Below the pieces are notes generated by a model, which did no database searches, was not told where the DNA came from, and saw only the letters and a program-made list of their open reading frames with translations. DNA of 64,000 bases from Minisyncoccota bacterium (lineage in GTDB: Bacteria > Patescibacteriota > Minisyncoccia > Phycocordibacterales > DATDSR01), in contig DATDVE010000023.1 in NCBI GenBank assembly GCA_036517655.1, forward strand, positions 1,358 through 65,357, given 5' to 3'. A program made the position numbers and the translations under genes. Below, piece by piece: positions 22,520 to 59,737 of this stretch. The number at the start of each line of letters is the position of its first letter. Position 1 is the first letter of the stretch.

Positions 22520-23644
22520 TCATTTATACAGTGACAGATTGCCGCTTGCTTTGAGTTCTGCGAAGGCGGAAGTATCAGAATGAAGTAGAAACTCGGGGTG
22601 CAGATATGCTTGTCCTGCGAAGCCTAGGCGAAGTAGGGCTGCGATGCCGATCATGGTGGCATTGTCGCCCGTGAACTTCAGGTCGGGTAAGTGCAGAGCA
22701 ACCTCCCGTGGCTGACTGTCAGCCACGGGGCCGACAGTCAGCCTAAGATGATCACGAATTGTTTTATTAGCTATTACCCCACCGCCGACCAGCAAGCTTT
22801 TGGCTCCGTATTTAGTAATAGCATCAGTTGTTTTCTTGATCAGCACTTCTGTCACAGCCTGCTCGAATTCATGCGCGATTGCTATTTTTTGCTCATCTGT
22901 GAGTTCACCTTTATTTTCTTCTTTAAGTTTTTTTGCTAGATAGAGAACAGCAGTTTTTAAACCAGAAAACGAGTAATCCAAATCGCCCGAATGTAGCATT
23001 GGCCTCGGGAGCGATATTTTGATATTTGGATATTTAGATGTTTCGAAATGAGATGCTAGTCTGGAGATTTCTGGACCTCCTGGATAGGGCAAGCCGAGTA
23101 TGCGCGCAACTTTATCAAACGCTTCGCCTACAGCATCGTCTCGAGTGTTGCCAACCACTTCGTAACTACCCATCTCACGCATTAACACAAGTTGTGTATG
23201 CCCACCTGATATAAGTAATGCAATTGCCGGGAGTTCTAGTTTGCAAATTTCAAATTGCTCATTGCTCATTCGTTTCAGCAAAGCTGAAACGATATGTCCT
23301 TCCAGATGATCCGTGGCAACCAAAGGCACATTCCACTTCATGGATAATCCGCGAGCAAAGTTAATCCCTTCCCAAAGCGCCGGCTCGAGGCCGGGACCAT
23401 ATGTTACGGCAATCAAGTCAACCTTAATTCCTAATTCATTATTCATAATTCGCGCAAGAATCTCCGGCAGATTCTTGGCATGCTCGCGCTTGGCAAGCAT
23501 CGGTACCACCCCGCCCCACTCTTTGTGAACATTTATCTGACTCGAGACTTCGTGTGCAAGCACATCGAAAAGTTTGCCATCGCTAGTCTCAAGTAAAGAG
23601 ATAGCAGTCTCATCGCACGAAGTTTCTATCGCCAGAATTCTCAT
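22520..23644 (-). CDS. tsaD: tRNA N6-adenosine threonylcarbamoyltransferase TsaD (Kae1/Gcp family)
   Basis: MRILAIETSCDETAISLLE N-terminus, His-pair metal site (HLEGH), 375 aa from the ATG at 23644; the longer ORF would run into tRNA-Ser. Confidence 0.85.
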   Translation of the reverse strand: MRILAIETSCDETAISLLETSDGKLFDVLAHEVSSQINVHKEWGGVVPMLAKREHAKNLPEILARIMNNELGIKVDLIAVTYGPGLEPALWEGINFARGLSMKWNVPLVATDHLEGHIVSALLKRMSNEQFEICKLELPAIALLISGGHTQLVLMREMGSYEVVGNTRDDAVGEAFDKVARILGLPYPGGPEISRLASHFETSKYPNIKISLPRPMLHSGDLDYSFSGLKTAVLYLAKKLKEENKGELTDEQKIAIAHEFEQAVTEVLIKKTTDAITKYGAKSLLVGGGVIANKTIRDHLRLTVGPVADSQPREVALHLPDLKFTGDNATMIGIAALLRLGFAGQAYLHPEFLLHSDTSAFAELKASGNLSLYK

Positions 23645-23646
23645 AA

Positions 23647-23733
23647 CGGAGGCGGGAGGATTCGAACCTCCGATAGAGTTTCCCCTATGCCAGTTTTCGA
23701 AACTGGTGCCTTCAACCACTCAGCCACGCCTCC
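23647..23733 (-). tRNA. tRNA-Ser (anticodon CGA)
   Basis: Revcomp GGAGGCGTGGCTGAGTGGTTGAAGGC...CCAGT-TTCGAAA-ACTGG, long variable arm, T-arm GGAGG-TTCGAAT-CCTCC. Confidence 0.85.
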
Positions 23734-26304: not shown

Positions 26305-27549
26305 TTGCAAATTAAACCATTGAATCATTTAGTTCTTCATGTAGACGGCGATGCGTTCTTCGTGGGTTGCGAGCTTACGCGCCGGCCGGACTTGCGGGGC
26401 TTGCCTGTTGTTACCGGCGCGGAGCGGGGGATTGCCTCGGCCATGAGTTATGAGGCAAAAAGACTGGGTGTAACTCGCGGCTACCCAATATTTAAGTTAC
26501 GCAAAGACTTTCCTCAAGTTATTGTGCTGCCAGGCGATTATGAATTATATGAGCAGATGGCTATGCGCATGTACTCAATAATGAGCAGGTTTAGCGACAA
26601 AGTCGAAGAGTACAGCATAGATGAATGCTTCGCCCTGCTTCGTCAAGACTACGCAGGGCAAGCTCGTGAAATTAAAAATACTTTGCAGCGCGAGCTGGGT
26701 ATGACATTCTCTTTCGGCCTTGCGCCTACTAAAGTTCTGGCCAAACTGGCGAGCAAGCGCGATAAGCCAGACGGTTTAGTTTGTGTGTCGCGAGAAAATA
26801 TTGAGCGAGAGTTATATGGCATGAGTATAGAGAAAGTGTGGGGCATTGGCCCGCGCAGTCTGCCGCTATTACATGCTCTGGGTGTGCACACTGTAGGTGA
26901 CTTTGCTGCGCAAAACGAGCAGTGGGTGCGCACACATTGGAATGTGAACTTTCTAGATTTATGGCACGAGATTAGGGGCGAGCAAGTTTACAAAGTAGGG
27001 GAAGGTGATCTTGCTAAACATAAGTCAATTCAAAAGACGCGCACATTCTCGCCCTCTACCAACGATCCCGCAGTGCTTATGGGCCAATTAGCTAAAAATA
27101 TAGAAAACGCATTCGGTTATGCGAGGTCACTTAATCTTGCCGCGAGCGGGGCAAGCGTGTTCATTAAAACAGATAAATTCGGCTACCGGGTAGCCGAATT
27201 TAAGTTCTCTTCACTTACTCAAACCCCGGAACTACTGCTTGCAAAAGTTCGCGAGCGATTACCCAAATTAATCAAAAAGAGCGAGAAATACAGAGCCACA
27301 GGCGTCACTTTGTTGAATTTACTGGAGGTGAGTCCTCCACTTGGAGGTCTCACCTCCAAACCAGATCTCTTCGGCGACTTCGCAAAAAAAGAGAGTCAGT
27401 TAGCTGTGCACCAAGTTGCTGATAAATTATATGAGAAATATGGTGGCAGAGTGCTAACCGTGGGAAGCGCGCTAGCCTCGAGGCACCTAGGCAAAGTGCA
27501 ATCCGCAAGATCAAACCTAGGCCTTCCGTATCTAGGCATTGTGTGCTAG
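26305..27549 (+). CDS. Y-family DNA polymerase (DinB/Pol IV or UmuC-like)
   Basis: 414 aa; catalytic start LHVDGDAFFVGCE, SIDECF acidic motif, little-finger region; directly downstream of lexA. Confidence 0.8.
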   Translation: MQIKPLNHLVLHVDGDAFFVGCELTRRPDLRGLPVVTGAERGIASAMSYEAKRLGVTRGYPIFKLRKDFPQVIVLPGDYELYEQMAMRMYSIMSRFSDKVEEYSIDECFALLRQDYAGQAREIKNTLQRELGMTFSFGLAPTKVLAKLASKRDKPDGLVCVSRENIERELYGMSIEKVWGIGPRSLPLLHALGVHTVGDFAAQNEQWVRTHWNVNFLDLWHEIRGEQVYKVGEGDLAKHKSIQKTRTFSPSTNDPAVLMGQLAKNIENAFGYARSLNLAASGASVFIKTDKFGYRVAEFKFSSLTQTPELLLAKVRERLPKLIKKSEKYRATGVTLLNLLEVSPPLGGLTSKPDLFGDFAKKESQLAVHQVADKLYEKYGGRVLTVGSALASRHLGKVQSARSNLGLPYLGIVC

Positions 27550-34736: not shown

Positions 34737-34765
34737 AGAACTTAGGACCCGGAGTCCTAAGTTCT
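34737..34765. repeat. REP-like hairpin AGAACTTAGGAC-CCGGA-GTCCTAAGTTCT at the 3' end of the RAYT gene
   Basis: 12-bp inverted repeat overlapping the stop codon of the 34765..35412 CDS. Confidence 0.8.
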
Positions 34766-35412
34766 TACTCTTCATTAAATAATTCTTGAAGTTCTTTGTA
34801 CGATGCCCTTTTTTCGATCATGAATGGAAGATTGTCTAAGCAAAAATTTTCAAACTCTCTATTTTTCGTGAATTGTTCGAGCAAAATATCCTTCTTACAC
34901 AACCCTCGTGCATTTTGCGTATATTCATTCCAACTTGAACGGACAAGCTTGTTACTCTCTTCATTAAGTTGGTGAACACGGTTGTTCAGATTTACATATG
35001 CAGCTGAATGGAGAAAGTAATCGTTATCAGAAATGTGTTTTGACTTGAATCTCCCTGGGAAAAGAGTCCCAGAACGTTTGTGCCGATTATTGAAATATTT
35101 AACGTATCCACCTATTTGTTTGTTCATGAACAAACTGATGCCGCCCTCAACTATTTCCTCTAAAATAAAGTGGAAGTGGTTAGGGTTAAGGCAATAACAA
35201 ATAATGTTAACTAATGGAGAGACATCGTCCCTTTTATTGCCCGCAAAAGAGTTCGAGTAAATGCTCTCGATAGGTTCTATCGTATTGAATTCTGCCAATC
35301 CTTGCACGAACCTGTCAGAGTCTTTACTATCAATTACAATATTCCGTTTATCTACACCACGATTATAAATGTGATAGAACTCTCCAACAGCAAAAGCTTC
35401 TTTCCTAACCAT
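34765..35412 (-). mobile_element. HUH-Y1 transposase gene, REP-associated tyrosine transposase (RAYT)/IS200-like, copy 1
   Basis: 215 aa; HUH motif NPNHFHFIL and catalytic Tyr region SAAYVNLN; flanked on both sides by CTTAGGAC-N5-GTCCTAAG hairpins; paralog at 39208..39855. Confidence 0.75.
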
Positions 35413-35424
35413 ATTCGTATTATA

Positions 35425-35447
35425 ACTTAGGACTCCGGGTCCTAAGT
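35425..35447. repeat. REP-like hairpin ACTTAGGAC-TCCGG-GTCCTAAGT upstream of RAYT copy 1
   Basis: 9-bp inverted repeat 13 nt upstream of the RAYT start. Confidence 0.8.
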
Positions 35448-35532
35448 AAGGAGTTGTGGATAAAAGAAAGGCCGGGACGCTCTCGCACTCCCAGCCTTGA
35501 CTTTCGCTTTCCCCGGCCGTGATGTGGCCGCT

Positions 35533-35733
35533 TCACTTTTTGTTGCCGTTGATCTTGTCGAGCTCGTCTGCGATCCATCGGAGCTCCCCGGCGGTGAGGT
35601 AGGTCATACCTATATTGAACTTGCCTTTGTACACGCCTGCCACGTCGATGGTTCCGGCGGTGATTGTGGGGCCGCTGCGCTCGTAGTAGTAAACGATTTT
35701 CCAGCCCGATTTCCTGCCTTGGATCTCAATCAT
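35533..35733 (-). CDS. hypothetical small protein
   Basis: 66 aa ORF with beta-rich composition; the overlapping + ORF 35497..35760 looks spurious. Confidence 0.3.
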   Translation of the reverse strand: MIEIQGRKSGWKIVYYYERSGPTITAGTIDVAGVYKGKFNIGMTYLTAGELRWIADELDKINGNKK

Positions 35734-35800
35734 GATGTGTGCCCTCCGGAATTAAGCTAGCATAATGCTCCGCAAAATGCTATAATATACTCATACAATC

Positions 35801-36277
35801 ATGGTTATACAGTATTTTGGGCAGGGGGAGGTTAAGGTGAGTCAAGGGGATTGGAACCTTAGCTTTTCGGCTGGCAAGTTGCGGATTGGTGGGCGAGATG
35901 GTTTTGAGATTGTTGGCCCGGGCGAGTACGAAGTAAATGGCACTTTCGTCCGCGCTGTGCCAACTGATGGCCCTGATAACAAAATTAACACTGCTTATTC
36001 TGTTTTATTTGATGATATTAGGTTAGTGCACTTGGGAGAGTCTCTCGGTGCGATTAAAGCCGAGGCTAAAGAAGTTTTGTCAGATGCAGATATTTTATTT
36101 AGCCCCAGTTCTGACTATGCCACTACGCTTGATCCCAAGATTATAATTCCAATGTATGAAGCCAAAGGCAAAGATTTGCCTAAGCCGGTTGATAAATTAG
36201 TTGTGAAGCGTAAAGATCTTGAGGGCAAGGAAGGAGAAGTAGTTCCGATAATTTCCCTGCCTGCGGCAGGCAGGTAA
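35801..36277 (+). CDS. hypothetical protein
   Basis: 158 aa, soluble, no recognisable motif. Confidence 0.35.
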   Translation: MVIQYFGQGEVKVSQGDWNLSFSAGKLRIGGRDGFEIVGPGEYEVNGTFVRAVPTDGPDNKINTAYSVLFDDIRLVHLGESLGAIKAEAKEVLSDADILFSPSSDYATTLDPKIIIPMYEAKGKDLPKPVDKLVVKRKDLEGKEGEVVPIISLPAAGR

Positions 36278-36308
36278 TTGACCTAATTACTAATTTCTAA
36301 AACTTATC

Positions 36309-36506
36309 ATGGACTTTTTAGAAAAATTACGATCTAAGCCGGAGCCAGTAAGGAGGGCGATTGCCTTTTGGGCGGCAGCCATCTTTAGCTTTATCATCTT
36401 CACAATTTGGGTTGTGAATTTGGGCACGAATCTTGCAGGCAAAAATAGTCAGATCGCCTCGCCCTTCGAGACAATAAAGAACGATCTAAGTAACTTGGGC
36501 GAGTAA
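36309..36506 (+). CDS. hypothetical small membrane protein
   Basis: 65 aa with one TM helix; stop abuts gyrA start. Confidence 0.3.
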
Positions 36507-36508
36507 TT

Positions 36509-38977
36509 ATGGCATCGAAGAAATCAGAAGAGAAAGGTTTGCCTGCTGCCCACGCTAACGTCGTGGCTACTCCCATTGTGGGCGAGATGCGCACTTCATA
36601 TTTGACCTACGCTATGAGCGTGATTGTTTCGCGCGCATTACCAGATGTGCGCGACGGTCTCAAGCCTGTGCACAGGCGCATTCTGTACGCCATGCACGAA
36701 GACGGGCGCGTACACAGTGCACGGTTTACGAAATCTGCCGGAGTGGTGGGCGATGTACTCAAGAAGTATCATCCACACGGCGACATGGCCGTCTACGACT
36801 CGATCGTGAAGATGACTCAAGATTTTTCTAGTCGTTATCCACTCATTCAGGGCCAGGGAAATTTCGGTTCGATTGATGGCGATAGCGCGGCCGCCTACAG
36901 ATATACAGAAGTGCGCATGTCGGCTCTTGCATCAGAAGTTTTGCGCGACATTGATAAAGAGACTGTTGACTTTACCCCCAGTTATGACGCCACACGCAAA
37001 GAACCCCTTGTTCTGCCATCGCGCGTGCCCATGCTCTTATTAAATGGAACATTGGGTATTGCCGTCGGCATGGCTACCAAAGTGCCGCCGCACAACTTAC
37101 GCGAAGTGATGCAGGCTCTCATACACTTAGCAGACAATCCAGAGGCAACGAATGAAGATTTACTTGAATTTGTGCAGGGGCCGGACTTCCCAACGGGCGG
37201 TATTATTTTCAACAAAAAAGATATTGCTCACGCTTACTCATCTGGCCGCGGGGGCGTGCTTGTTCGTGGTGAAGCAGAAATAATAGAAGACAAAAACTCC
37301 CAAATAGTAATTACCTCCATCCCATATCAAGTCAACAAGGCGGAGCTAATAATCAAGATGGCTGACCTTGTGCATGAGAAAAAGATTGAGGGAGTGAAAG
37401 ATATTCGTGATGAGTCGACAACACTCGATGATCTTAGAATTGCAATTGATCTCAAACATGGCAGTTTCCCACAGAAAGTGCTCAATGCGCTCTACAAACA
37501 CACAGACCTGGAAACAATGTTTCATTTTAACACGCTGGCATTGGTAGATGGCGTGCCAGAGACTTTGTCACTGAAAAGAATTTTGGAGGAATTTCTGGGT
37601 CATAGAAAGGTTGTAGTCAAACGTCGCACGCAATTTGATCTCACCAAGGCCAAAGATCGCGCGCATATATTGGAAGGCCTCAAGAAAGCGCTTGATCACA
37701 TAGATGAAATTATCAAGCTAATTAAGAAGTCAGCCGATGTGCCAACTGCCCGCGAGGGGCTAGTGAAGCAATTCAAGTTTAGCGAGCTTCAGGCAAACGC
37801 GATACTTGAAATGAAGCTCTCTAAACTCGCCGGTCTCGAACGCAAGAAGATAGAAGATGAGCTTAAAGAAATGCTGGCCCTGATTGCAGAACTTGAAAGC
37901 ATACTTAAGAGCGCGGCCAAAATGCTTACTCTGATCAAGAAGGAGTCGCAGGAAATAATAGATAAATTTGGCGATGACAGGCGCACGAAAGTTGTGAAGG
38001 GTGGGGCCAAAGAGATTAGCACGGAAGATATGATCCCCGACGAAGATAGCATGCTCGTGCTCACGCGCGGCGGTTATATTAAGCGCACGCGCCCAGAAGA
38101 GTACAAACGTCAGAAGAGAGGCGGCGTGGGCGTGGTGGATCTTGATACTAAAGAAGAGGACTTTATCACGGTCTTGCTTAGCGCCCGCACTCATTCTGAT
38201 CTCTTGTTCTTCACAGATCGGGGCAAAGTGTATCAACTCAAAATGTATGATATTCCCGAAGGCAAACGGGCAACCAAAGGTAAGAGCATAATGAACTTCT
38301 TATCTCTAAGTGAGGGAGAGAAAGTGACTAGCGTTTTGCCACTACCTAAAGAAGCGAAAGCGCGCGAAAAGTTTGAACTGATGATGATCACTAAACGTGC
38401 CGTGGGCAAGAAAGTTGAAGCAGACAGATTCTTCGACGTGCGCAGATCCGGCATTATTGCGATCACTCTAGATAAAGGAGACGAACTCCTAGGCGTGTTC
38501 CCGGTTGAGAAGGGGGATAGTGTCGTGCTCGCGTCCAGAGGCGGCCAAGCAATTAGGTTTAAAGAGAGTGATATAAGAGCGATGGGTCGAGCCGCAGGCG
38601 GCGTGCGAGCCATGAAGCTAAAGTCCGGCGATGAGATCGTGGGCGCAGACTTGGTGGAGAAAGAAAAAGAGAGTGAGCTCACGCTCTTTGTGATGAGCGA
38701 TAACGGCCTGGGCAAGAAAACTAAAATCAAGGAGTACAAGATTCAGAAGCGCGGCGGTTCTGGCGTCAAGACTGCCAAAGTGACTGCCAAAACTGGCAAG
38801 CTAATAGTGGCTAAAGTCTTATTTGGCGCTGAAGAAGAACTTGTGGCCATGTCTAAGATGGGCCAAGTAATCAGAGTGGAAGGCAAAGAAGTGCCAACCT
38901 TAGGCCGTCAGACTCAAGGCGTAAGAATCATGAAGCTCCGCCCTGGGGACAATATCGCTTCGGTAGAACGCCTATGA
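36509..38977 (+). CDS. gyrA: DNA gyrase subunit A
   Basis: 822 aa; active-site Tyr region [15 protein letters not shown]-like segment, C-terminal beta-pinwheel repeats. Confidence 0.95.
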
Positions 38978-39177
38978 TGACTCCTTACACACCCAAAAGA
39001 CTAGTACGCTGGTTAAGAGATTTTCTCAATTGGATTGATAGTACTAGAGAAAAAGCGGAAAGAAAAGGAGTTATTACAGATCTATTAGCAAATACACTCC
39101 TATTACTAAGCGAGTTGTTTGTTATTTTCGTTTTCCTTGTCGGGGCGGTATTCTTATTTCTTAATTTCTTTGACTGA
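38974..39177 (+). CDS. hypothetical small membrane protein
   Basis: 67 aa, C-terminal TM helix; overlaps the gyrA stop by 4 nt. Confidence 0.3.
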
Positions 39178-39180
39178 TTT

Positions 39181-39205
39181 CACTTAGCGCCCAGGGCGCT
39201 AAGTG
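39181..39205. repeat. REP-like hairpin CACTTAGCGCC-CAG-GGCGCTAAGTG at the 3' end of RAYT copy 2
   Basis: 11-bp inverted repeat; identical copy at 39869-39893 and a degenerate copy at 39385-39417 inside the CDS. Confidence 0.8.
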
Positions 39206-39207
39206 TT

Positions 39208-39855
39208 TTATTCATTCATCAAAATTTCCTTCAATTCAGCGTAGTCATCTCTTTTACGTATCATCTCGGTAAGTGCATCAAGTGCGAAGATCCTATAGTC
39301 ATCTTTTGAATCAAACTGTTCAAGCACTATTTCCTTTGCGCAAATACCTTGAATATTTGTCGTATATTCTAACCAACTCGATCTCACCAACTCAGCGCCC
39401 TGGGCGCTAAGTTGGTGGACTCGGTCGTTTAGGTTTACATAGGCGCTTCCATGAACCAAATGTTCATTCGTTGTTATGTGCTTGGCCCTGAACGGCCCCT
39501 GGAAAAGTGGCCCGCTACGTTTATTTTTCTTGTTAAAGTACCAGGAATATCCTCCCATCACTTTCATCATAAATTTACTGATACCGTGATCCGCGATTTG
39601 CTTTAAAATAAGATGAAAATGGTTTGGGTTGATGCAATAAGCAATTATCTCAACAAGAGGGTCACTCTTCTTAATTTTGTTCTGATTAGAAAAATTTAAT
39701 TCGTAAAGACCACCTTCTGGCTCGACCTGGTTGAATATATCGATGCACGTTACCAATCTTTCCGAATTTTCGGGTGTCATAACGATTTGCCTTTTGTCTA
39801 CACCTCTATTAAAGACATGATAAATTTCACCAGGAGCCAAGTTTTGTTTTCTCAT
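39208..39855 (-). mobile_element. HUH-Y1 transposase gene, RAYT/IS200-like, copy 2 (start trimmed to align with copy 1)
   Basis: HUH motif NPNHFHLIL, Tyr region SAYVNLN; about 50% identical to copy 1; the annotated longer ORF would translate through the upstream hairpin. Confidence 0.75.
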
Positions 39856-39868
39856 GTGCGAATGATAA

Positions 39869-39893
39869 CACTTAGCGCCCAGGGCGCTAAGTG
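39869..39893. repeat. REP-like hairpin CACTTAGCGCC-CAG-GGCGCTAAGTG upstream of RAYT copy 2
   Basis: Identical to 39181-39205. Confidence 0.8.
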
Positions 39894-40468: not shown

Positions 40469-41770
40469 GTGAAGTCATTCCAAACAATTCTTTTGATAGT
40501 TTTTGCCTTCTTTATTGTGGGGGCTGTGCTTATATTTTCGGGCGTTTTGGGTGGGGGTAGCGGCTCACAGGACAAGCTTATTGCGCAGCCAGTAATAATG
40601 TGGGGCACGGTCTCTAAGTCTACGATGGAAGATATCTTGCAGAAGGCTATAGATGCCGGGGACAAGTTCGAGATTACCTATGTGGAGAAACGAGCCGACA
40701 GCTTCGAAGCGGAACTTATTGATGCTCTGGCCTCGAACAAAGGGCCAGATCTAATCCTTGCGCCGCATACTCTTGTTTTGAAGCAACGGGACAAGCTTCT
40801 GCCACTGCCCGAGACGGCTTTCTCAAGGCGCCTCTTCATGGACAGTTTCGTTGAGGCCGGCGAGACGTTGCTTGGGACAGACCAGGAAGGTGGTGAGAGC
40901 ATTGTGCTTGGATTGCCCCTTTTCCTAGATCCAATAGTTATGTACTGGAATCGTGACATGTTCACTAAGGCGGGCTTATCCGCTCCGCCTTCCACTTGGC
41001 TCGAGGTTCAACTTCTGCCAGAGCGCCTGACCAAGCTCGACGAGCGGGGCAATATCGTAGAGGGCGCTGTCGGTCTCGGGGGTGTCAATAATGTGAGTCA
41101 CTTCAAGGAGATCCTCTCCGCCCAGATTATGCAGACTGGTAACAAGATCGTCACGTTTGCCCTAGGGCGGGCTTCTGTCGTACTGGCAGAGGGTACCAAT
41201 GCGGAATCAGCTCTGCGCTTCTACTCCGAATTCGGCAACCCAAGTCTACCCAAGTATTCCTGGAACTCTGCCAAGCGCAGCTCGCTTGACGAATTCATAG
41301 CAGGCAAGCTTGCGATCTACTTCGGCTTTGGTAGTGAACTGGGGATAATCGAGGCTCGCAACCCACACCTTAACTTCGATACGGCCAATTTCCCACAGAT
41401 CTCAAGCGGTGAGCGCCGTCTCACATATGCAGATGTATACACACTCGCTGTTATCAAGAATTCGTCCGTGCAGAATGCGGCCTATGCCGTGGCCTATCGC
41501 ATGTCACTTGGTGTTGCGGCTGATATAGCGGGGAGTGAGTTGCGCTTGCCTCCCGCCCGTCGTGACCTCCTCTCTGTGGCCGATGAGGATCCGAATGTGG
41601 CTCTCTTCGAGTCCGCGGCCGTAATCAGCAAGACCTGGTTTGATCCCAACTGGGTAGTGACGAGGAATATCTTCGCCGATATGATAGAATCTGTATTAAT
41701 AGGCAAGTTAAGTCCGAGCAGCGCAGTGTCGGCGGCAAGCGCCCGCATCCAAGACTTGTTAAATATATAA
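40469..41770 (+). CDS. membrane-anchored extracellular solute-binding-like protein
   Basis: 433 aa; N-terminal TM helix then SBP_bac_1-like fold hints (IVMYWNRDMFTKAGL); GTG start. Confidence 0.45.
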   Translation: MKSFQTILLIVFAFFIVGAVLIFSGVLGGGSGSQDKLIAQPVIMWGTVSKSTMEDILQKAIDAGDKFEITYVEKRADSFEAELIDALASNKGPDLILAPHTLVLKQRDKLLPLPETAFSRRLFMDSFVEAGETLLGTDQEGGESIVLGLPLFLDPIVMYWNRDMFTKAGLSAPPSTWLEVQLLPERLTKLDERGNIVEGAVGLGGVNNVSHFKEILSAQIMQTGNKIVTFALGRASVVLAEGTNAESALRFYSEFGNPSLPKYSWNSAKRSSLDEFIAGKLAIYFGFGSELGIIEARNPHLNFDTANFPQISSGERRLTYADVYTLAVIKNSSVQNAAYAVAYRMSLGVAADIAGSELRLPPARRDLLSVADEDPNVALFESAAVISKTWFDPNWVVTRNIFADMIESVLIGKLSPSSAVSAASARIQDLLNI

Positions 41771-41772
41771 AA

Positions 41773-42114
41773 ATGGCATTAGTTGATTGCAACGGAAAAG
41801 TTGTTGGAGAAGGGGCAGACGCAAAATTCCTTGATGGCTGTACACTTCAAGATTTGGGTGTACTGATTGTGAAGATTTTTGACTACATGATCGACATTGT
41901 GTTCTTGCTTGCAGTGCTGGGCATTGCCGTGGGCGGTTTGTACATAATTTTCGGTGGGGCAAGCGAAGGCAATCGCATCCAGGGCAAGAGCATTATTGGC
42001 TCCTCTATCTTGGGCCTATTTGTAGCGGCCGCAGCCTGGGTGATTGTGAACACAATTCTGGTTGGCTTGGGAGCAGAAGGCTTCCGGAATCCGCTTAAAG
42101 TAGGAATATTTTAA
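41773..42114 (+). CDS. two-TM pilin-like protein (TrbC/VirB2 / T4SS-pilin-like family), paralog 1
   Basis: 113 aa; hairpin of two long hydrophobic helices; first of 8 tandem paralogs. Confidence 0.45.
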   Translation: MALVDCNGKVVGEGADAKFLDGCTLQDLGVLIVKIFDYMIDIVFLLAVLGIAVGGLYIIFGGASEGNRIQGKSIIGSSILGLFVAAAAWVIVNTILVGLGAEGFRNPLKVGIF

Positions 42115-42123
42115 ACAAGAAAT

Positions 42124-42459
42124 ATGCAAAGAATATTAGAATTTTTCACCCAGACCACCTATGCACAGATCACGAGCAAGGGCGGTTCGTCAGTTTTCAA
42201 AAATCCTCTTGGGGGAACCACGAACTTTACCGAACTTCTCAACAAAGTCCTCGAGGTGATAATTGCCATCGGCGTGCCAATACTAGTAGTCTTCATTGTC
42301 TACGCAGGGTTCCTCTTCGTGACGGCTCAAGGCAATGAGACTAAACTCGAGAAGGCTAAGGCGTCTCTCTTCTGGGCGATCATTGGCGGCGCGGTCTTGA
42401 TTGGGGCCAAAGTTATAGCCACGGCGATCCAAGATACTGTGGGAGTAATCGGCCCTTGA
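42124..42459 (+). CDS. two-TM pilin-like protein, paralog 2
   Basis: 111 aa; TM1 - short polar loop (TAQGNETKLEKAKASLFWAIIGG) - TM2. Confidence 0.5.
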   Translation: MQRILEFFTQTTYAQITSKGGSSVFKNPLGGTTNFTELLNKVLEVIIAIGVPILVVFIVYAGFLFVTAQGNETKLEKAKASLFWAIIGGAVLIGAKVIATAIQDTVGVIGP

Positions 42460-42490
42460 TCAAGCTTCTTATTTAACATGTATAGAATAT

Positions 42491-42787
42491 ATGAATGAAG
42501 CGGCAGCATTCAAAATAATAGTGGGCAAGGTCCTGATACAGTTACAGTTTATCCCCCCTTTCCTTGTGGGTCTGGCTCTAGTCTATTTCATATATTCTGT
42601 TGTGCTCGTGATCAAGAATTCTGGCGACGAAGCTAAACTAACAGAGAGCAAGAAGAGCATGACATTCGGTATCGTGGCTCTCTTTATTATGATCTCATTG
42701 TGGGGTTTGGCTACTGCCCTGCGGAGTACCTTCCAGCTCGACGATGGTTCGGTTAATCAGGGCAAGATAGATAGCCTGTGGAAATAG
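42491..42787 (+). CDS. two-TM pilin-like protein, paralog 3
   Basis: 98 aa; loop NSGDEAKLTESKKSMTFGIVALFIMISLWGL matches the family pattern. Confidence 0.5.
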   Translation: MNEAAAFKIIVGKVLIQLQFIPPFLVGLALVYFIYSVVLVIKNSGDEAKLTESKKSMTFGIVALFIMISLWGLATALRSTFQLDDGSVNQGKIDSLWK

Positions 42788-42887
42788 TGCTATCCAGAAA
42801 TATATGGGGGTGTATAATTGCCCTAGCCTCAAAGTAGGCATGAATTAGTGGTTAAAAATTAATAGCGTATTAATAATAAGTAATAAA

Positions 42888-43244
42888 ATGACTAAAGCTA
42901 AGATAACCGCAGCCGCTCTCTCCTTTGCCATGCTTGCGCCTATGTCGGCACTTGCAGTGGGGGAGAACCTGGAGAACTTGTTGTCGTTGATTAAGCGTCT
43001 CGTATCCGGCGCGATCCCAGTTCTGGTGGGTCTTGCCCTCATCTTCTTTATAGTTGGCTTGATTCGCTTCGTAATCGCGGGCGACGCCGAGAAGCGTGAG
43101 GACGGCAAGAAGATGATGTGGTGGGGTATTGTGGCCCTCTTCGTGATTGTCTCGATCTGGGGCATCGTCGAATTCATCGCCAGCACTCTTGGTATAACTA
43201 AGGAAGGACCTATCACTCCTCCTGGAGTAGTGGGTGTCCAGTAG
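42888..43244 (+). CDS. two-TM pilin-like protein, paralog 4 (signal peptide-like N-terminus)
   Basis: 118 aa; AGDAEKREDGKKMMWWGIVALFVIVSIWGIV family signature. Confidence 0.55.
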   Translation: MTKAKITAAALSFAMLAPMSALAVGENLENLLSLIKRLVSGAIPVLVGLALIFFIVGLIRFVIAGDAEKREDGKKMMWWGIVALFVIVSIWGIVEFIASTLGITKEGPITPPGVVGVQ

Positions 43245-43253
43245 ACATAAGTT

Positions 43254-43526
43254 GTGAACGAGTACTTAGCCGCAGTTCCCGCGGCAGTGGGCAAGATCAA
43301 GACAGAGATCGTCAACCCTATACTGAAGCTCTTGATTGCGCTTGCTGTAATATACTTCCTCTTCGGGGTGGTTAAGTACTTTATTGGTGCGCGCGAGAGG
43401 GCTGATTCGCAAGGCGCGGCCGAAGGCAAGAATCACATGCTCTGGGGTATCATAGGTGTAGCTATTACTATCTCGGCCTTCGGCATAGTTAATCTGATCG
43501 CAAGTTTCGTCGGGGAGGTAAGTTAA
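43254..43526 (+). CDS. two-TM pilin-like protein, paralog 5
   Basis: 90 aa; GARERADSQGAAEGKNHMLWGIIGVAITISAFGIV. Confidence 0.55.
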   Translation: MNEYLAAVPAAVGKIKTEIVNPILKLLIALAVIYFLFGVVKYFIGARERADSQGAAEGKNHMLWGIIGVAITISAFGIVNLIASFVGEVS

Positions 43527-43699
43527 CCCTGTTTCGCCCCACTTCGCTAAAGCTTCGCGGGGTCATTTTGCCAGCAAAATGAAAAACAGCCTTCGCGCCG
43601 TTCCCCTCCCAGCTTATGGCGGGGAAGTGACGGAGCGAAGGCCGTGACTTGAGACAAATGGTCCAGGAGAACGTGAGCGGGGGCGTGCTCGTGGCCGGG

Positions 43700-44713
43700 T
43701 CATGGGTAGAGCCGCATCTGGCCGTGACTGGGGCTCTCCGAGACCCAACAAGGGGTACCCTCGCAGATGCCGTCGTGACAGCAGTTCTCGTCCCAGCGCA
43801 TTGTGATAGCTTCACCCCTGTCTCGTGTCCCGTCGCGGTTCACGATCCAGCCCGTTCCCTTGCCGGCACCCTCCTTCCAAACCACGTGGCCGGTGTCGCC
43901 TTCCACGGTGGTGAGAGTGTAATGTTGCCAGCCTGGGCTATCCGCGACCTTGGTGAGGTCGAAGCGCCCATCCTGGTTCTCGAGGAACTGCGCGACGATA
44001 TGTCTCGTCGGCTTCGGGAGTTCGAACCCGAGCGCTGTTGGTGGAGCCGGTAGCGGCTGCTCGTCGGGGATGTGCGGAAGAACGTTTGCCCATCGCGCCA
44101 GTCGCCGGCCTTCCTTCTCCTCATTCACGGCCTGTGCCTGCTTGACGAGGTCGCGAACGGCTTGATGCCGAGTCGCCGTATCCTTGCCGCGGGCGACAGT
44201 CTCGACTCCGCGGACGACCTTCTTTCCCGTCTCGTGCACAGTGTCCGCGCTCGGCCAGGCCACCATCCTCGCCAGGTTCGCGAGTGCGACGACCGCTATG
44301 ATGAGGCCGGCGTACTGACGCAGCTTCCCCGGAGGAAAGACAACGCCGAGACCGATGTAGGCGACGAACAGAACGCCGCAGAGCAGGAAGCCGTAGCGGT
44401 TCTGCTCCGTCTTGAAGACGAGCACGAAGGTGCCGTAGGTGACCCCCAAGAAATAGGGGAACCACAGCAAGCGAACGAGCATCGCCACCGCCCGAATGTA
44501 GGGGATCTGCGAGGCGAGGGCGACGCCGGTGAAGAAGAGGGCCACGATCGTCGGGGAGATGAACACCACGACGAGCGGAAGAAAGATGTAGACGAGCGTC
44601 AGGACGAGTGCGGGTGTGTCCCAGCCCCACAACCCGCAGGCCGTGATGGCCGCGAGCATGGCGCCGAAGCCGATGATCGTCCACTGTCCGATTGAATCGA
44701 GATACGTTCTCAT
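43700..44713 (-). CDS. hypothetical polytopic membrane protein with Cys-rich C-terminal domain (high-GC island)
   Basis: 337 aa; about 6 TM helices then a soluble domain ending in ...CCHDGICEGTPCWVSE; GC content far above flanks. Confidence 0.45.
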   Translation of the reverse strand: MRTYLDSIGQWTIIGFGAMLAAITACGLWGWDTPALVLTLVYIFLPLVVVFISPTIVALFFTGVALASQIPYIRAVAMLVRLLWFPYFLGVTYGTFVLVFKTEQNRYGFLLCGVLFVAYIGLGVVFPPGKLRQYAGLIIAVVALANLARMVAWPSADTVHETGKKVVRGVETVARGKDTATRHQAVRDLVKQAQAVNEEKEGRRLARWANVLPHIPDEQPLPAPPTALGFELPKPTRHIVAQFLENQDGRFDLTKVADSPGWQHYTLTTVEGDTGHVVWKEGAGKGTGWIVNRDGTRDRGEAITMRWDENCCHDGICEGTPCWVSESPSHGQMRLYP

Positions 44714-45121
44714 TTAGTACCTCCTTCTCCTGATGGGTGGTAGGGGTGGGACTGGCTGGCCGACCGGTCGTGACCGGAAGTACGGCAGCTTGTTGACCAG
44801 CCCCATGAACAACCTGACAGGGCTGATCCGTCGGCCGATCTCGGCCATCTCGCGATCGAAATCCGCGATGGGCTCGGCGACCTTGTCGAAGATCTCGCGA
44901 CCCTGCGCCTTGGCCGTGTCCCAGTCTGGGACACTCTCCCCAACGATGGCCACGAAGCCGTCGTCAGAGCGGCGATCGAGCGCTCTCTTGAGCGCCTCCG
45001 GATCAGAACAGATCCGATCCCAACGCTCCGCCCAGACTTTGAAGCGCTTCAGGAACTTCTCCTGATACGCACCCTCGTCGGTCTTGGCGATCTGGGTGAG
45101 ACTCTTGTCTTTCGTTGGCAT
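44714..45121 (-). CDS. hypothetical protein (high-GC island), start trimmed to the internal ATG
   Basis: 136 aa from MPTKDKSL; charged, helical; the longer ORF overlaps the upstream gene. Confidence 0.35.
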   Translation of the reverse strand: MPTKDKSLTQIAKTDEGAYQEKFLKRFKVWAERWDRICSDPEALKRALDRRSDDGFVAIVGESVPDWDTAKAQGREIFDKVAEPIADFDREMAEIGRRISPVRLFMGLVNKLPYFRSRPVGQPVPPLPPIRRRRY

Positions 45122-45134
45122 GTCTCTCCTCCTT

Positions 45135-45473
45135 CTAGAGAATTCCGTCGCGAAGTGCTTCCCGGGCGTCCTCTCCCGGCTTCTTGGGCTTGTCACCCGC
45201 CTTGCCGAAGAGGTGAACGTACGCATCGGCGTAGATGATACGCTGAATGCGTTCGCGCTGGAAGCGGTTCGGATGGTCGAGCGCGGCGCAAAGGGCGGGG
45301 TAATCCCGCTGTCCGTCCTCGCTCTCGATGAGCGGGGAGACCAGACTGCGGACCGCGTCCGCGTCTTCCTTCTGTTGCTCTCTGCCCTTCTTGTCTCCCA
45401 AGAAGAGCTTTTCGATCACGTACCAGATCCCCTCGTCGAATGGGATCAAGTCTAGCAGCTTGGGCATCTTCAC
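45135..45473 (-). CDS. hypothetical protein (high-GC island)
   Basis: 112 aa; the three island genes are co-oriented with short spacers. Confidence 0.35.
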   Translation of the reverse strand: MKMPKLLDLIPFDEGIWYVIEKLFLGDKKGREQQKEDADAVRSLVSPLIESEDGQRDYPALCAALDHPNRFQRERIQRIIYADAYVHLFGKAGDKPKKPGEDAREALRDGIL

Positions 45474-45722
45474 TTTTCCTTTCTAGATTTAGGACCATTT
45501 GTCAGCGTCCTTGATCTACCCTCAATTATATCACATATTAATACGAAATGCAAGCCCACTTCGCCGATAGGCTTCGCGGGCCACAGGGTTGGGGATAAAC
45601 TGCTTTCTGTGGCTTATTTATGGGGTAAAATTGTGTATACTTGTCCCGTTAGAAGTTACGGTGATTATCTAACGAGATTTTATAAAACCACATAATATTA
45701 CTATGCATAAACTTCTAATGGG

Positions 45723-46070
45723 ATGAGAAACAAAATTCTAGTGCCAGTTTTACTTCTAATTTTGCCGAGTTTCGCTAGTGCTAAGACTATCGGTGATCTC
45801 TTGAAGGACGTAGGTGGCTGGCTTGGCACTTTGTTACCCATCTTAACGGCTCTTGCCCTCGTTGTTTTCATCTGGGGACTTGTTATTTTCATCGGCAAGG
45901 CTGGCGATGAGACGGCTCGCACAGAAGGCAAGCAGCGGATGATCTGGGGCGTGATAGCCCTCTTCGTGATCATCTCGATCTGGGGCTTGGTCACCTTCTT
46001 GCAAGAGACAACTGGCACAGGTGGCTCAAGCGCATTGCCCGCACCCGGTTTACCAGCAGCACCAAAGTGA
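45723..46070 (+). CDS. two-TM pilin-like protein, paralog 6 (signal peptide-like N-terminus)
   Basis: 115 aa; GKAGDETARTEGKQRMIWGVIALFVIISIWGLV. Confidence 0.55.
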   Translation: MRNKILVPVLLLILPSFASAKTIGDLLKDVGGWLGTLLPILTALALVVFIWGLVIFIGKAGDETARTEGKQRMIWGVIALFVIISIWGLVTFLQETTGTGGSSALPAPGLPAAPK

Positions 46071-46363
46071 TGGAAGCAGCAGCAACAGTAGGTTCGATCA
46101 TCGGGGTGGGCATGAGTATTTTGGGTTTGCTCATCCCGCTCATAATCGGGCTTGGCCTTGTGTATTTCATTTGGGGTCTGGTGCAATTTATCGGTAAGGC
46201 TGGTGATGAGGCAGGCAGGACTGAAGGTAAGGCTAAGATGCTCTGGGGCATCATTGCTATCTTCGTGATCGTTTCCGTCTGGGGCCTGGTGGGAATTCTG
46301 CGGGAATCCTTCTTCGGAGGTGGTGCCGACAAGACACCGCCGCCCCCGCAGTTCCAAAGTTAA
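46067..46363 (+). CDS. two-TM pilin-like protein, paralog 7
   Basis: 98 aa; GKAGDEAGRTEGKAKMLWGIIAIFVIVSVWGLV; overlaps the previous stop by 4 nt. Confidence 0.55.
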   Translation: MMEAAATVGSIIGVGMSILGLLIPLIIGLGLVYFIWGLVQFIGKAGDEAGRTEGKAKMLWGIIAIFVIVSVWGLVGILRESFFGGGADKTPPPPQFQS

Positions 46364-46369
46364 TTTCTT

Positions 46370-47146
46370 ATGACCGCGCAAGTTTACGCACAAGAGACTG
46401 GCAAGTACCAGCTACTCGAACAGCTTCCTAGTGGCCCGGAAGTTAATACTAAGAGCACAGAATATTTTGGCACGGCATATAACATTGCCCTAACAGTCAC
46501 GGTGGCTCTTGCCCTCGTCATGATTGTGGTGGGTGGTATTCAGTACACTATCTCTTGGGCCTCGCCCTCGGCAAAGGGAGATGCGAAAAATAGAATCTTG
46601 GGTGCCATCGGGGGACTCATTCTGGCTTTGGTCTCGTATATACTTTTGCATACGATTAATCCCAAACTTGTCACAGAGCAGAATATCAATTTGCCAAGCG
46701 GTGGCAGTTCTGGCGGAGGTGGTTCCTCGGGCGGCGGATCTGGGGGAGGAGCTTTATGCAGCACATGCTTGAGTCAAGCTGATGCGCTCAAGCAGTTAAC
46801 AGTCGCTGGCATTAGCGTTAAAACTGGAGTTGTCCTTGAGGGTATACGCCAAGATACTTTGAATGCTGTTTTCTATGTTAGAAGTAAGTGTAATGCTTGT
46901 ACGATAATAGTTACCTCGGCCCTGGAGGGTACTCATGAAAGTGGTGGACATGATTCGGGATACAAACTTGATGTGCGATTGAATCGTGATCTTGATAATT
47001 TTATCGAGACTAATTTCACTCGTGTTTCCGATAGCAAGACAATGAAGTACAAAAGATACCAGGAAAGCGTAACCGGAGCAGTCTGGATGAAAGAGATGTG
47101 CGCTGCCCCATGTACGCCACACTGGGACGTAGACGGAAAGGGATAA
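46370..47146 (+). CDS. pilin-like N-terminal domain fused via Gly/Ser linker to a putative Zn-peptidase (M15/VanY-like) domain
   Basis: 258 aa; two-TM segment with SPSAKGDAKNRILGAIGGLILALV, linker GGSSGGGGSSGGGSGGG, C-terminal SGGHDSGYKLD (H-x3-G-x3-D) plus later His, as in VanY/M15 DD-peptidases. Confidence 0.4.
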   Translation: MTAQVYAQETGKYQLLEQLPSGPEVNTKSTEYFGTAYNIALTVTVALALVMIVVGGIQYTISWASPSAKGDAKNRILGAIGGLILALVSYILLHTINPKLVTEQNINLPSGGSSGGGGSSGGGSGGGALCSTCLSQADALKQLTVAGISVKTGVVLEGIRQDTLNAVFYVRSKCNACTIIVTSALEGTHESGGHDSGYKLDVRLNRDLDNFIETNFTRVSDSKTMKYKRYQESVTGAVWMKEMCAAPCTPHWDVDGKG

Positions 47147-58498: not shown

Positions 58499-59737
58499 AT
58501 GGAAGTTTCTGTTAAAAACGGTGAAATTGTTCTGTCGGTTAGTGAATACATTGAACGGCTTAACCTTGCTCTTGGGGGTGAGGCGGGATTCGTTGAGGGG
58601 GAAGTGACGGAGTTTAAAGCAAGTGCCAAGTGGGTCGGATTCACACTCAAGGATTCACAAAGTTCGGTGGAGAGACCGCCAACTGGCGGACTCACCGCCA
58701 CAAGTGCTGTGCTTAAGTGTGTGATGCATGCTCATATGTTTCGCCGGCTTGGCGTTGCCATCGAGGATGGTATGAGAGTCAAAGTTTATGGCGTGCCCCG
58801 GATCTCGAAGGGTTGGGGCAGTTTAGGATTATGGGTTGAGAGTATTGAGCCACTTGGTGAAGGCTCGCTTAAGAAGGCTTACGAGTTACTTTTTAAGAAA
58901 TTAACTCTCGAGGGACTATTCGCTCGCAAGCGCGAGTTGCCGGAGTTCATTTCGCGCATTGGCGTGATTAGCTCGCGCGACGGCGTAGTTCTTCAAGACC
59001 TACGCAAGAATCTCCGAAGGTTAAGCCTTCGGGTAAACTTTGTACACACCCAAGTTGAAGGCGCCGGAGCCGTGCCGGGCATCTTGCGAGCGCTCGACTA
59101 TTTTAATCGTAGCGGAAATGATTATGACTGTGTTGTGCTAATACGGGGTGGGGGATCGCTCGAGAGTTTGCAAGCTTTCAACAATGAGGAAGTTGTGCGA
59201 GCTATCTATGCAATGCCTGTACCGGTGATCGCGGGCATTGGCCACGACGTAGACGTGCCCCTCTCTGCGCTCGTGGCAGATGCAATGGCCAGCACGCCCA
59301 CGGGTGTGGCCCACATAATTAATGCTACCTGGGACGCACTTGCGCTTGGCCTGCCTGATCTAACTCGCAGGATTCACGATGGTATGAGTGACATTGTTTA
59401 CGCGCACAAGCAAAGAGTAGAACTTTTGCAGACGCGTATGCACACATACTTTGTTCAACTATTTCGCACATTTGACTTAGCCGCCGGGCGGCTAAGTAGG
59501 GCGCGAGAGAGGGTTGGGGAGAGAATTAGGGCATTGCAGGAGTATCTTGCGCGCACAGAGCGCTTGCTCACATTTTCTGATCCAATCAGGAATTTGAAAC
59601 TGGGGTATAGTTTGACGTATGTAGCGGGCAAGGTTCTCAAGAGCAAAAAAGATGCTAGAATAGGCGACACACTAGAAACTAGAGTGAGTGACGGGCTGAT
59701 TGATTCTAAAATTAGTAACATTCGCATGAATTCGTAA
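58499..59737 (+). CDS. xseA: exodeoxyribonuclease VII large subunit
   Basis: OB-fold N-terminus (VEGEVTEFKASAKWVGFTLKD), catalytic region RGGGSLESL...GIGHDVD; start set after tRNA-Trp. Confidence 0.8.
   Translation: MEVSVKNGEIVLSVSEYIERLNLALGGEAGFVEGEVTEFKASAKWVGFTLKDSQSSVERPPTGGLTATSAVLKCVMHAHMFRRLGVAIEDGMRVKVYGVPRISKGWGSLGLWVESIEPLGEGSLKKAYELLFKKLTLEGLFARKRELPEFISRIGVISSRDGVVLQDLRKNLRRLSLRVNFVHTQVEGAGAVPGILRALDYFNRSGNDYDCVVLIRGGGSLESLQAFNNEEVVRAIYAMPVPVIAGIGHDVDVPLSALVADAMASTPTGVAHIINATWDALALGLPDLTRRIHDGMSDIVYAHKQRVELLQTRMHTYFVQLFRTFDLAAGRLSRARERVGERIRALQEYLARTERLLTFSDPIRNLKLGYSLTYVAGKVLKSKKDARIGDTLETRVSDGLIDSKISNIRMNS

Follow-up and report, generated by a model that had tools for sequence, protein, structure and literature searches.

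Two diverged Y1 HUH genes beside gyrA in a Patescibacteria genome and their palindromes: a probable REPtron-like module

The window analysed here, a stretch of 64,000 nucleotides from contig DATDVE010000023.1 of a Minisyncoccota bacterium, holds two related genes for Y1 HUH proteins (copy 1 and copy 2), one on either side of gyrA and each framed by a palindrome of its own. The arrangement raises the question of what such units are: insertion sequences that move as a whole, stationary genes whose protein acts on short palindromes, or genes that lie between ordinary regulatory elements. The reading put forward as the probable one assigns both units to a Patescibacteria-specific branch of the Y1 HUH family and sees in each a REPtron-like module, in which a vertically inherited, stationary gene of the RAYT type (REP-associated tyrosine transposase; REP, repetitive extragenic palindrome) is paired with its own cognate palindrome. 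The two genes and the palindromes that accompany them are as follows.

34765..35412, minus strand: copy 1, Y1 HUH (RAYT-like) gene, 215 amino acids, without an internal palindrome
39208..39855, minus strand: copy 2, Y1 HUH (RAYT-like) gene, 215 amino acids, ATG at 39855
34737..34765: palindrome downstream of copy 1, AGAACTTAGGAC-CCGGA-GTCCTAAGTTCT, 12-bp arms, -11 kcal/mol, z-score -5.6
35425..35447: palindrome upstream of copy 1, ACTTAGGAC-TCCGG-GTCCTAAGT, 9-bp arms, 12 nucleotides (nt) before the ATG
39181..39205: palindrome downstream of copy 2, CACTTAGCGCC-CAG-GGCGCTAAGTG, 11-bp arms
39869..39893: palindrome upstream of copy 2, same sequence as 39181-39205 (direct orientation)
39385..39417: in-frame internal palindrome of copy 2, 15-bp arms with one mismatch, -15.5 kcal/mol, z-score -7.5

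An earlier note on this stretch had described two coding sequences at these positions, about 50% identical and on the same strand (the minus strand, which it left unstated), with the motifs NPNHFH(F/L)IL and (S)AAYVNLN. Both motifs are present in both genes, the second as (S/A)AYVNLN, and the two proteins are 51% identical (BLASTP, E 8e-81). An alignment of 27 family sequences shows no variation at Y139 or at the two histidines of the HUH motif, H79 and H81, and none or almost none in an SSW motif at residues 159-161. The family has the motifs NPNH[FY]H, LFQG, YVNLN[DN] and SSW. A match to the Pfam family PF01797 (Y1_Tnp), the check that the earlier note had proposed, is obtained for copy 2 (26.9 bits, above the cut-off of 23) but not for copy 1, which at 20.2 bits lies slightly under it; a precomputed PF01797 match is present in most homologs.

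Comparison of copy 2 with PDB sequences returned nothing relevant, and the family profile gave weak spurious matches to RNase A, with ISDra2 TnpA at E 0.36. As these sequence searches were uninformative, a fold search was needed. The AlphaFold2 model of copy 2 (predicted local distance difference test, pLDDT, 86.4; predicted template modelling score, pTM, 0.85) places Y139 in a helix formed by residues 130-141. Its top fold match in the PDB is 4er8, the E. coli RAYT with a REP hairpin (E 1.2e-5, TM-score 0.66), followed by the TnpA proteins of IS608 and ISDra2, and all 17 matches at E <= 0.001 are RAYT, IS608 or ISDra2 TnpA structures. The likeness of family profile residues 113-202 to bovine RNase A (E 5e-5 to 0.05) was judged to be chance since the fold search gave it no support. 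The Pfam match of copy 2 and the fold match to 4er8 uphold the Y1/HUH assignment of the earlier note, and the placing of copies 1 and 2 in the Y1 HUH family, with the RAYT option favoured over IS200, is supported.

A word-indexed search of 5.8 billion proteins gives 1,837 matches to copy 2. Those whose source is named come from Paceibacterota, Parcubacteria or relatives, and the best match other than copy 2 itself is only 57% identical. A profile search reaches 1,122 clusters (50% identity) at E <= 1e-30 and 11,225 at E <= 1e-10. The family-wide results below were obtained from 79 loci (individual loci carry L numbers) with relatives of the two genes in species-representative genomes, nearly all labelled Patescibacteria or unclassified bacteria; together with both window genes, 81 genes were examined.

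The palindromes of the window are well beyond chance expectation. Pattern searches gave 2, 6 and 5 matches against 0.01, 0.00 and 0.05 expected, and when the hairpins are folded as DNA their energies lie between -7.5 and -15.5 kcal/mol and their z-scores between -4.3 and -7.5. The final base of 34737-34765 overlaps the stop codon of copy 1. Its 23-nt core (34740-34762) is the exact reverse complement of 35425-35447, so that the flanks of copy 1 are inverted, and the internal palindrome of copy 2 is inverted relative to both copy 2 flanks. An Rfam search gave nothing but a sub-threshold miRNA match at this internal palindrome. The earlier note had listed all four flanking palindromes and a third copy inside copy 2; all are present, and the third is a family-wide feature rather than an accident of copy 2.

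The same layout recurs throughout the family. On the upstream side the median distance from the end of a perfect palindrome (>= 8 bp) to the ATG is 15 nt (interquartile range 13-20); on the downstream side another begins a median of 2 nt past the stop codon, which it overlaps or abuts in 17 of 42 cases. As a consensus the family has (C)ACTTGG-NNNN-loop-NNNN-CCAAGT(G), of which the window form is ACTTAG...CTAAGT. The outer arms ACTT(G/A)G...C(C/T)AAGT are conserved family-wide, which extends to the whole family the earlier remark that the two hairpin types share them, while the inner 4 bp and the loop vary between genes and agree within a gene. There is no conservation outside the palindromes; the unit ends exactly there. 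Identical arms are found upstream and downstream in 38 of 47 genes, where 2000 permutations give a mean of 2.5 and a maximum of 8. The internal palindrome obeys the same rule, its arms being identical to those upstream in 25/31 genes (permutation mean 1.8, maximum 7) and to those downstream in 21/29 (mean 1.5, maximum 6). The claim that each gene has its own cognate hairpins thus holds and generalizes. The loop triplet is common to both flanks in 37 of 47 genes, in the same orientation in only about half.

Pairing within the palindromes was assessed over about 1.3 Mb of sequence, at sites picked by their outer feet alone. Of 308 such sites, 228 have Watson-Crick pairs at all four inner positions, against 0.4% by chance. 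Among 126 distinct palindrome variants 94.9% of cells are paired, double changes occur at all five variable pairs, and 258 compensatory cells are counted against 93 in shuffled data (a value reached in 0 of 500 shuffles). G-T pairs are nearly absent (4 of 1,260 cells). Their scarcity indicates that the constraint acts on DNA, and an RNA-level role as the main constraint was rejected.

Of the 81 genes, 36 (44%) contain a perfect in-frame palindrome, always at the same position between the tyrosine helix and the SSW motif and with arms of up to 17 bp. In copy 2 the internal palindrome encodes HQLSAQGAELV (H147-V157). The consensus peptide, VH-QLGGxTAKL-V(R/K)SSW, is the palindrome read in frame (CAA CTT GGC GGT nnn ACC GCC AAG TTG). 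As the inner stem tracks the flanks, so the peptide tracks the stem, giving for example QLGDQVAKL, QLGGLAAKL, KLGHSVSKS, GLGSLAPKS and RGGPTATL. The internal copy has been lost in copy 1, where the corresponding peptide is QLNEESNKLV, in the ortholog of copy 1 at L007, and across a clade made up of L020, L056, L045, L041, L044, L059, L057, L062 and L076. This clade keeps matched flanks, and the internal copy is therefore unneeded for flank matching. It has to be considered whether the in-gene palindrome is a functional 'master copy', at once a substrate site for the enzyme and the code for a palindrome-reading loop (H147-V157) beside the catalytic tyrosine. If so, a change in the palindrome would alter site and reader together, the new type would then overwrite flanking and orphan copies, and the gene would possess a self-referential route to fast diversification of specificity. 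This idea is regarded as very unlikely.

Palindromes of the family are also found away from Y1 genes. The window contains one such orphan, of a third type:

59475..59497: orphan palindrome, ACTTAGCCGC-CGG-GCGGCTAAGT, in frame within xseA (exonuclease VII large subunit)

It encodes DLAAGRLS, and its outer arms are the same as those of the copy 1 and copy 2 palindromes. A metagenome scan with the window's three palindrome types as pattern gave 80 matches at 70 loci, and 64 of these matches are perfect palindromes. The scan missed a JGI contig known to carry copy 2, and its counts are lower bounds. Sixty-eight matches lie away from any Y1 gene. The earlier note had raised the question of whether the palindromes occur elsewhere, and for the copy 2 type they do, on metagenome contigs: it is present at three or more non-Y1 loci (L090/L147, L094 and L128/L150), whose tetranucleotide composition ranks 2nd to 8th of 126 in likeness to the window and matches it as closely as pieces of the window match each other. 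The copy 2 type is also found at two Hainich groundwater loci. The xseA type was found 12 times; it flanks, and in variant form lies inside, the Y1 gene of L098 and L114 (53-56% identical to copy 2), and therefore has its own cognate gene class. In the 79 genome loci, 20 orphans have a Y1 gene within a few kb, and 13 of them are of that gene's type, where random assignment gives 2.0 and at most 7 in 5,000 trials.

Many orphans are coding. About 38 of the 68 are in open reading frames (ORFs) of at least 100 amino acids, several of them being insertions relative to homologs, which departs from the placement between genes that marks REPs. Host genes of in-frame palindromes include those for XseA, MiaA, TsaE, transketolase, UvrD, YchF, SecA and LeuRS. 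In alignments the palindrome-encoded insertions comprise 5 to about 20 residues and are missing from up to six homologs. Homologs of transketolase, UvrD, MiaA and YchF are without the palindrome-encoded segment; for SecA and LeuRS the differences in length at the palindrome site are smaller. Between the window and L099 (XseA protein 83% and DNA 76.6% identical) the xseA palindrome is unchanged, though adjacent synonymous sites differ.

A second site in xseA, at 58681-58705 of the window, holds a degenerate family palindrome, AACTGGCGGACTCACCGCCACAAGT; the orthologous site of L099 (11573-11595) holds a perfect one, ACTTGGGATC-CCG-GATCCCAAGT, of the type that flanks the Y1 gene of L007. At one site in TsaE, L139 carries the copy 2 type (peptide SLSAQGAKS), and L120, L122 and L131 carry ACTTGGGGGT-CGG-ATCCCCAAGT (peptide ELGGRIPKS); the TsaE genes of L120 and L122 have a type-3 palindrome at a second site. 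The conservation of the xseA palindrome, together with the different types carried at orthologous sites in xseA and TsaE, points to selection or overwriting rather than drift. Genes for the transketolase C-terminal subunit in L111, L124 and L158 carry two adjacent or overlapping palindromes (peptide NLAAGPLS-SGPAAKS), a doublet that forms a 13-21-residue insertion missing from six homologs. REPIN-like palindrome doublets are also seen in L112 and L127.

The age of the two genes bears on whether the units move as a whole. Seventeen contigs, taken from several samples, encode the exact copy 2 protein, and the surroundings of its gene are the same on every one; no OrfB/TnpB domain was found among the neighbouring genes on these contigs, which are housekeeping genes. 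In the close relative L007 (GyrA 83% identical) the order is pth-S1-Y1-orf158-gyrA-methyltransferase-SBP (solute-binding protein). Its Y1 gene occupies the site of copy 1 and is orthologous to that gene, with 70.6% identity and a nonsynonymous divergence (dN) of 0.24; synonymous sites are saturated, and for this reason no dN/dS ratio is given. In L007 this gene is flanked by ACTTGGGATC-CGG-GATCCTAAGT and the exact reverse complement of that sequence. Compared with the window copy 1 palindrome, 4 of 23 positions are different, and a compensatory change from C:G to T:A is among the differences. As each difference between the window and L007 is mirrored in both flanks, these have changed in concert. 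L007 is without copy 2 and orf67, its gyrA and methyltransferase genes being 17 bp apart. In the more distant L025 (GyrA 69% identical) a Y1 gene occupies copy 2's site between the methyltransferase gene and gyrA, in the same orientation, and groups with copy 2 in a neighbour-joining tree; it is therefore simpler to suppose that L007 has lost copy 2. Identity between paralogs of one genome is 40-57%, with one pair at 76%. The Y1 genes are old, stationary and under purifying selection.

These observations bear on the alternative that each unit is a minimal autonomous IS200-like insertion sequence of about 710 bp, with the palindromes as its ends and a single-stranded circle as intermediate. The conserved unit does end exactly at the palindromes, the fold also matches the IS608 and ISDra2 TnpA proteins, copy 2 and orf67 are missing from L007, and genomes hold several paralogs in different contexts. 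However, near-identical copies, about 99% alike for IS200 (PMC6006769), are not seen here, where the best non-self match is 57% and paralogs are mostly 40-57% identical. The surroundings of copy 2 do not vary among its 17 contigs, the synteny of copy 1 persists despite 17% gyrA divergence, and the site of copy 2 is common to L025. Instead of strand-specific left and right ends, the units have one perfect palindrome at both, its relative orientation being random; the tyrosine motif is YVNLN rather than the class-1 Y---Q, and there is no tnpB nearby. The IS200-like alternative is accordingly held to be unlikely, and of the two types that the earlier note had offered, RAYT or IS200, the first is favoured and the second fails on copies, tyrosine motif and tnpB.

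The two related genes in direct orientation on either side of gyrA could also suggest a composite transposon-like structure that mobilizes the 3.8-kb gyrA block. Yet identity between the copies is only 51% and their palindromes are not of one type, L007 keeps the same gene order without copy 2, gyrA of L025 adjoins a copy-2-like gene, and gyrA itself is a conserved housekeeping gene that is stationary in all three genomes (window, L007 and L025). This possibility is scarcely credible and was ruled out by synteny. The bracketing of gyrA pointed out in the earlier note is real but looks incidental, since L007 retains the gyrA block and copy 1 without copy 2. The comparison of the gyrA neighbourhood that the note called for has thus given a syntenic copy 1 in L007 and a copy-2-like gene in L025.

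Further features of the neighbourhood were observed. The gene orf67 (38974-39177, plus strand) encodes a small hydrophobic protein and overlaps the gyrA stop codon (ATGA). L025 has an unrelated 239-amino-acid gene at the orf67 position, the gyrA-methyltransferase gap being a variable spot. Beyond the solute-binding-protein gene, at about 41770-46500 of the window (2635-8008 of L080), is a cluster of small genes with T4SS_pilin/TrbC-like domains.

The palindromes might instead be ordinary regulatory elements, acting as dimer operators, bidirectional terminators or mRNA-end stabilizers and not moved by the Y1 protein, which may bind as a repressor or perform some host task on single-stranded DNA. 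The sequence upstream of each gene is relevant here, as it contains the following.

35419..35424, minus strand: TATAAT, -10-like hexamer by direct sequence reading, putative promoter element, ending 6 nt before the copy 1 ATG
39862..39867, minus strand: TATCAT, -10-like hexamer after TGT (extended -10) by direct reading, putative promoter element

The TG of the copy 2 extended -10 is formed by the last bases of the upstream palindrome. Across the family a TAnnnT hexamer ends 4-14 nt before the ATG in 49 of 55 genes, preceded by TGn in 23, although this statistic is weak evidence because TAnnnT is common in AT-rich spacers. A scan with the two-hexamer sigma-70 consensus called no promoter for copy 1 or copy 2. 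In the family the final bases of the upstream palindrome often provide the TG of an extended -10. As this palindrome overlaps the -10-like hexamer and the ATG follows within about 6-12 nt, the protein probably limits its own expression, and a leaderless or short-leader transcript is plausible. This overlap with the -10 region is what a regulatory role would predict, as are the abutment of the downstream palindrome on the stop codon and the perfect symmetry, which suits a dimer on double-stranded DNA. In addition, TTTTATTCAT comes after 39181-39205 on the plus strand, and with this T-rich tail the palindrome may double as a gyrA-orf67 terminator. Regulation leaves unexplained, however, the third, in-frame copy and the dozens of palindromes in housekeeping genes that are missing from homologs, as well as the concerted change of both flanks. 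Most downstream palindromes are without a T-run, and the near absence of G-T pairs argues against constraint at the RNA level. A purely regulatory function is considered improbable.

If, as the REPtron-like reading holds, the Y1 protein acts on its own palindrome, the process can be pictured as follows. The palindrome would extrude as a hairpin on single-stranded DNA and be bound by the Y1 protein, the conserved foot ACTT(G/A)G...C(C/T)AAGT being read as the family signature and the inner 4-5 bp with the loop as the specificity part. Tyr139 and a metal bound by the HUH motif would cut beside the hairpin, and the strand would be rejoined elsewhere. In this way a palindrome of 23-33 nt would be copied to new sites and resident copies would be overwritten, and the orphans that survive in gene-dense genomes would largely be in-frame, stop-free coding insertions. 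The proposed copying and overwriting would account for identity within a gene as against difference between paralogs, for scattered orphans and for the switching of type at orthologous sites. Binding, cleavage, single-strand transfer and mobilization of the palindrome, like autoregulation, are predicted activities of these proteins.

Several points weigh against this reading. The NCBIfam model REP_Tyr_transpos (NF047646) scores 17.8 and 29.5 bits for the two proteins, below its cut-off of 80. The foot ACTT(G/A)G is present on both sides with variable outer flanks, so that the 5' GT[AG]G tag of canonical REPs is missing, and loop orientation is random, whereas characterized TnpAREP enzymes are strand-specific. 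Copy number is low, with one orphan in the 64-kb window. No other copy of the copy 1 type was found in this window or in the metagenome scan; the absence is weak evidence, because the scan was non-exhaustive and missed a known copy 2 contig. The contigs with the copy 2 type are tied to the window genome by composition alone. The palindrome at 39181-39205 resembles an intrinsic terminator, and the palindromes could be double-stranded operators for a dimer, which their perfect Watson-Crick symmetry fits equally well.

Comparison with known systems places the module between several groups. For other families, cleavage of REP strands by TnpAREP and their transfer have been demonstrated in vitro (PMC8266576). 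Every tnpAREP is accompanied by a REP family of its own, and some REPs are located inside tnpAREP, in its reading frame (PMC6006769). The E. coli TnpAREP/REP-BIME (bacterial interspersed mosaic element) REPtron (4er8; PMC3479197, PMC8266576) is the best structural match, and shares a low-copy, diverged, vertically inherited Y1 gene with its own flanking palindromes, dispersed palindromes and covariation of gene and palindrome. Unlike it, the present system has no GT[AG]G tag, and its palindromes have perfect 9-17-bp stems, 3-5-nt loops and a symmetric 'double foot'. They are present in low copy number, with many copies inside genes rather than between them, and the protein, at 215 amino acids, has a longer C-terminal part and an NCBIfam RAYT score far under the cut-off.

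In TnpAY1 subclass 2.4 of Quentin et al. 2018 (PMC6006769) REPs likewise flank the gene and lie in frame inside tnpAREP, and 'double-foot' REPs are known; in the family described here the in-gene copy is at one fixed site after the tyrosine motif across much of the family. The motifs of subclass 2.4 are NH[IFV]H, WQ and YIxNNP as against NPNH[FY]H, LFQG and YVNLN[DN], and its hosts are Cyanobacteria and Bacteroidetes as against Patescibacteria. The closest motif set, judged by eye only, is that of subclass 2.1/TIRYT (PMC6006769; PMC3733652), with NH[YF]H, FQ, a Y[IV]HLNP-like motif and SS after the tyrosine. These proteins also have a C-terminal extension (about 240 amino acids) and a low copy number, and some TIRYT genes have self-complementary flanking inverted repeats, to which the exact 23-nt inverted repeats flanking copy 1 can be compared. 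Subclass 2.1 is, however, reported to be without nearby REP-like hairpins, and its inverted repeats follow the consensus GGGG[AT][CG]A[CG]. More generally, the tyrosine motif here is YVNLN followed by D or N, not P, and so differs from the class-2 Y---NP (PMC6006769).

IS200/IS605 TnpA proteins (IS608, ISDra2) have the HUH/Y1 fold and a hairpin-bounded gene, and those elements act on single-stranded DNA. The present units differ in having no identical copies, no tnpB, the same palindrome at both ends in random orientation, a tyrosine motif other than Y---Q and genes that are syntenic between species. Rickettsia palindromic elements and REPs within ORFs (PMC3733652) are in-frame inserts in genes that are probably functional, including genes of replication and repair; the palindromes of the present family, at 23-33 nt, are far shorter, and they are linked to a cognate Y1 gene, which itself carries a copy. 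The system of the window is thus REPtron-like by fold and population genetics, 2.1/TIRYT-like by motifs and 2.4-like by behaviour. It departs from canonical RAYT/REP systems in the GTAG tag, the Y---NP motif, the NCBIfam score and the extragenic site, and from IS200 elements as well.

The palindromes related to the two genes are not the only ones in the window. About 16 perfect palindromes with a stem of at least 9 bp are present against roughly 1 by chance, and several belong to other sequence families and lie within long ORFs (10759-10791, 27174-27202, 20145-20172, 22705-22729, 23270-23292 and 23455-23477). A 33-nt palindrome within a LepA-like gene encodes ELPGNQPGYQVT, and a single ORF (22523..23719) holds three palindromes. 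Other families of mobile palindromes may be represented here.

Most descriptions of RAYT/REP systems concern Proteobacteria, Cyanobacteria and Bacteroidetes, and none was found for Patescibacteria (Candidate Phyla Radiation) in the searchable literature. With no fewer than 126 natural palindrome variants, of which about 50 can be assigned a cognate Y1 gene, the family provides a data set for how Y1 proteins read hairpins. A copy-over process is suggested by the constant position of the in-gene copy and by the exchange of palindrome types at a given site. For the organisms themselves, the picture would be one of tiny mobile palindromes that lie in frame in essential genes of very small, gene-dense genomes, and palindrome insertions may account for some of the unexplained short protein insertions in Patescibacteria.

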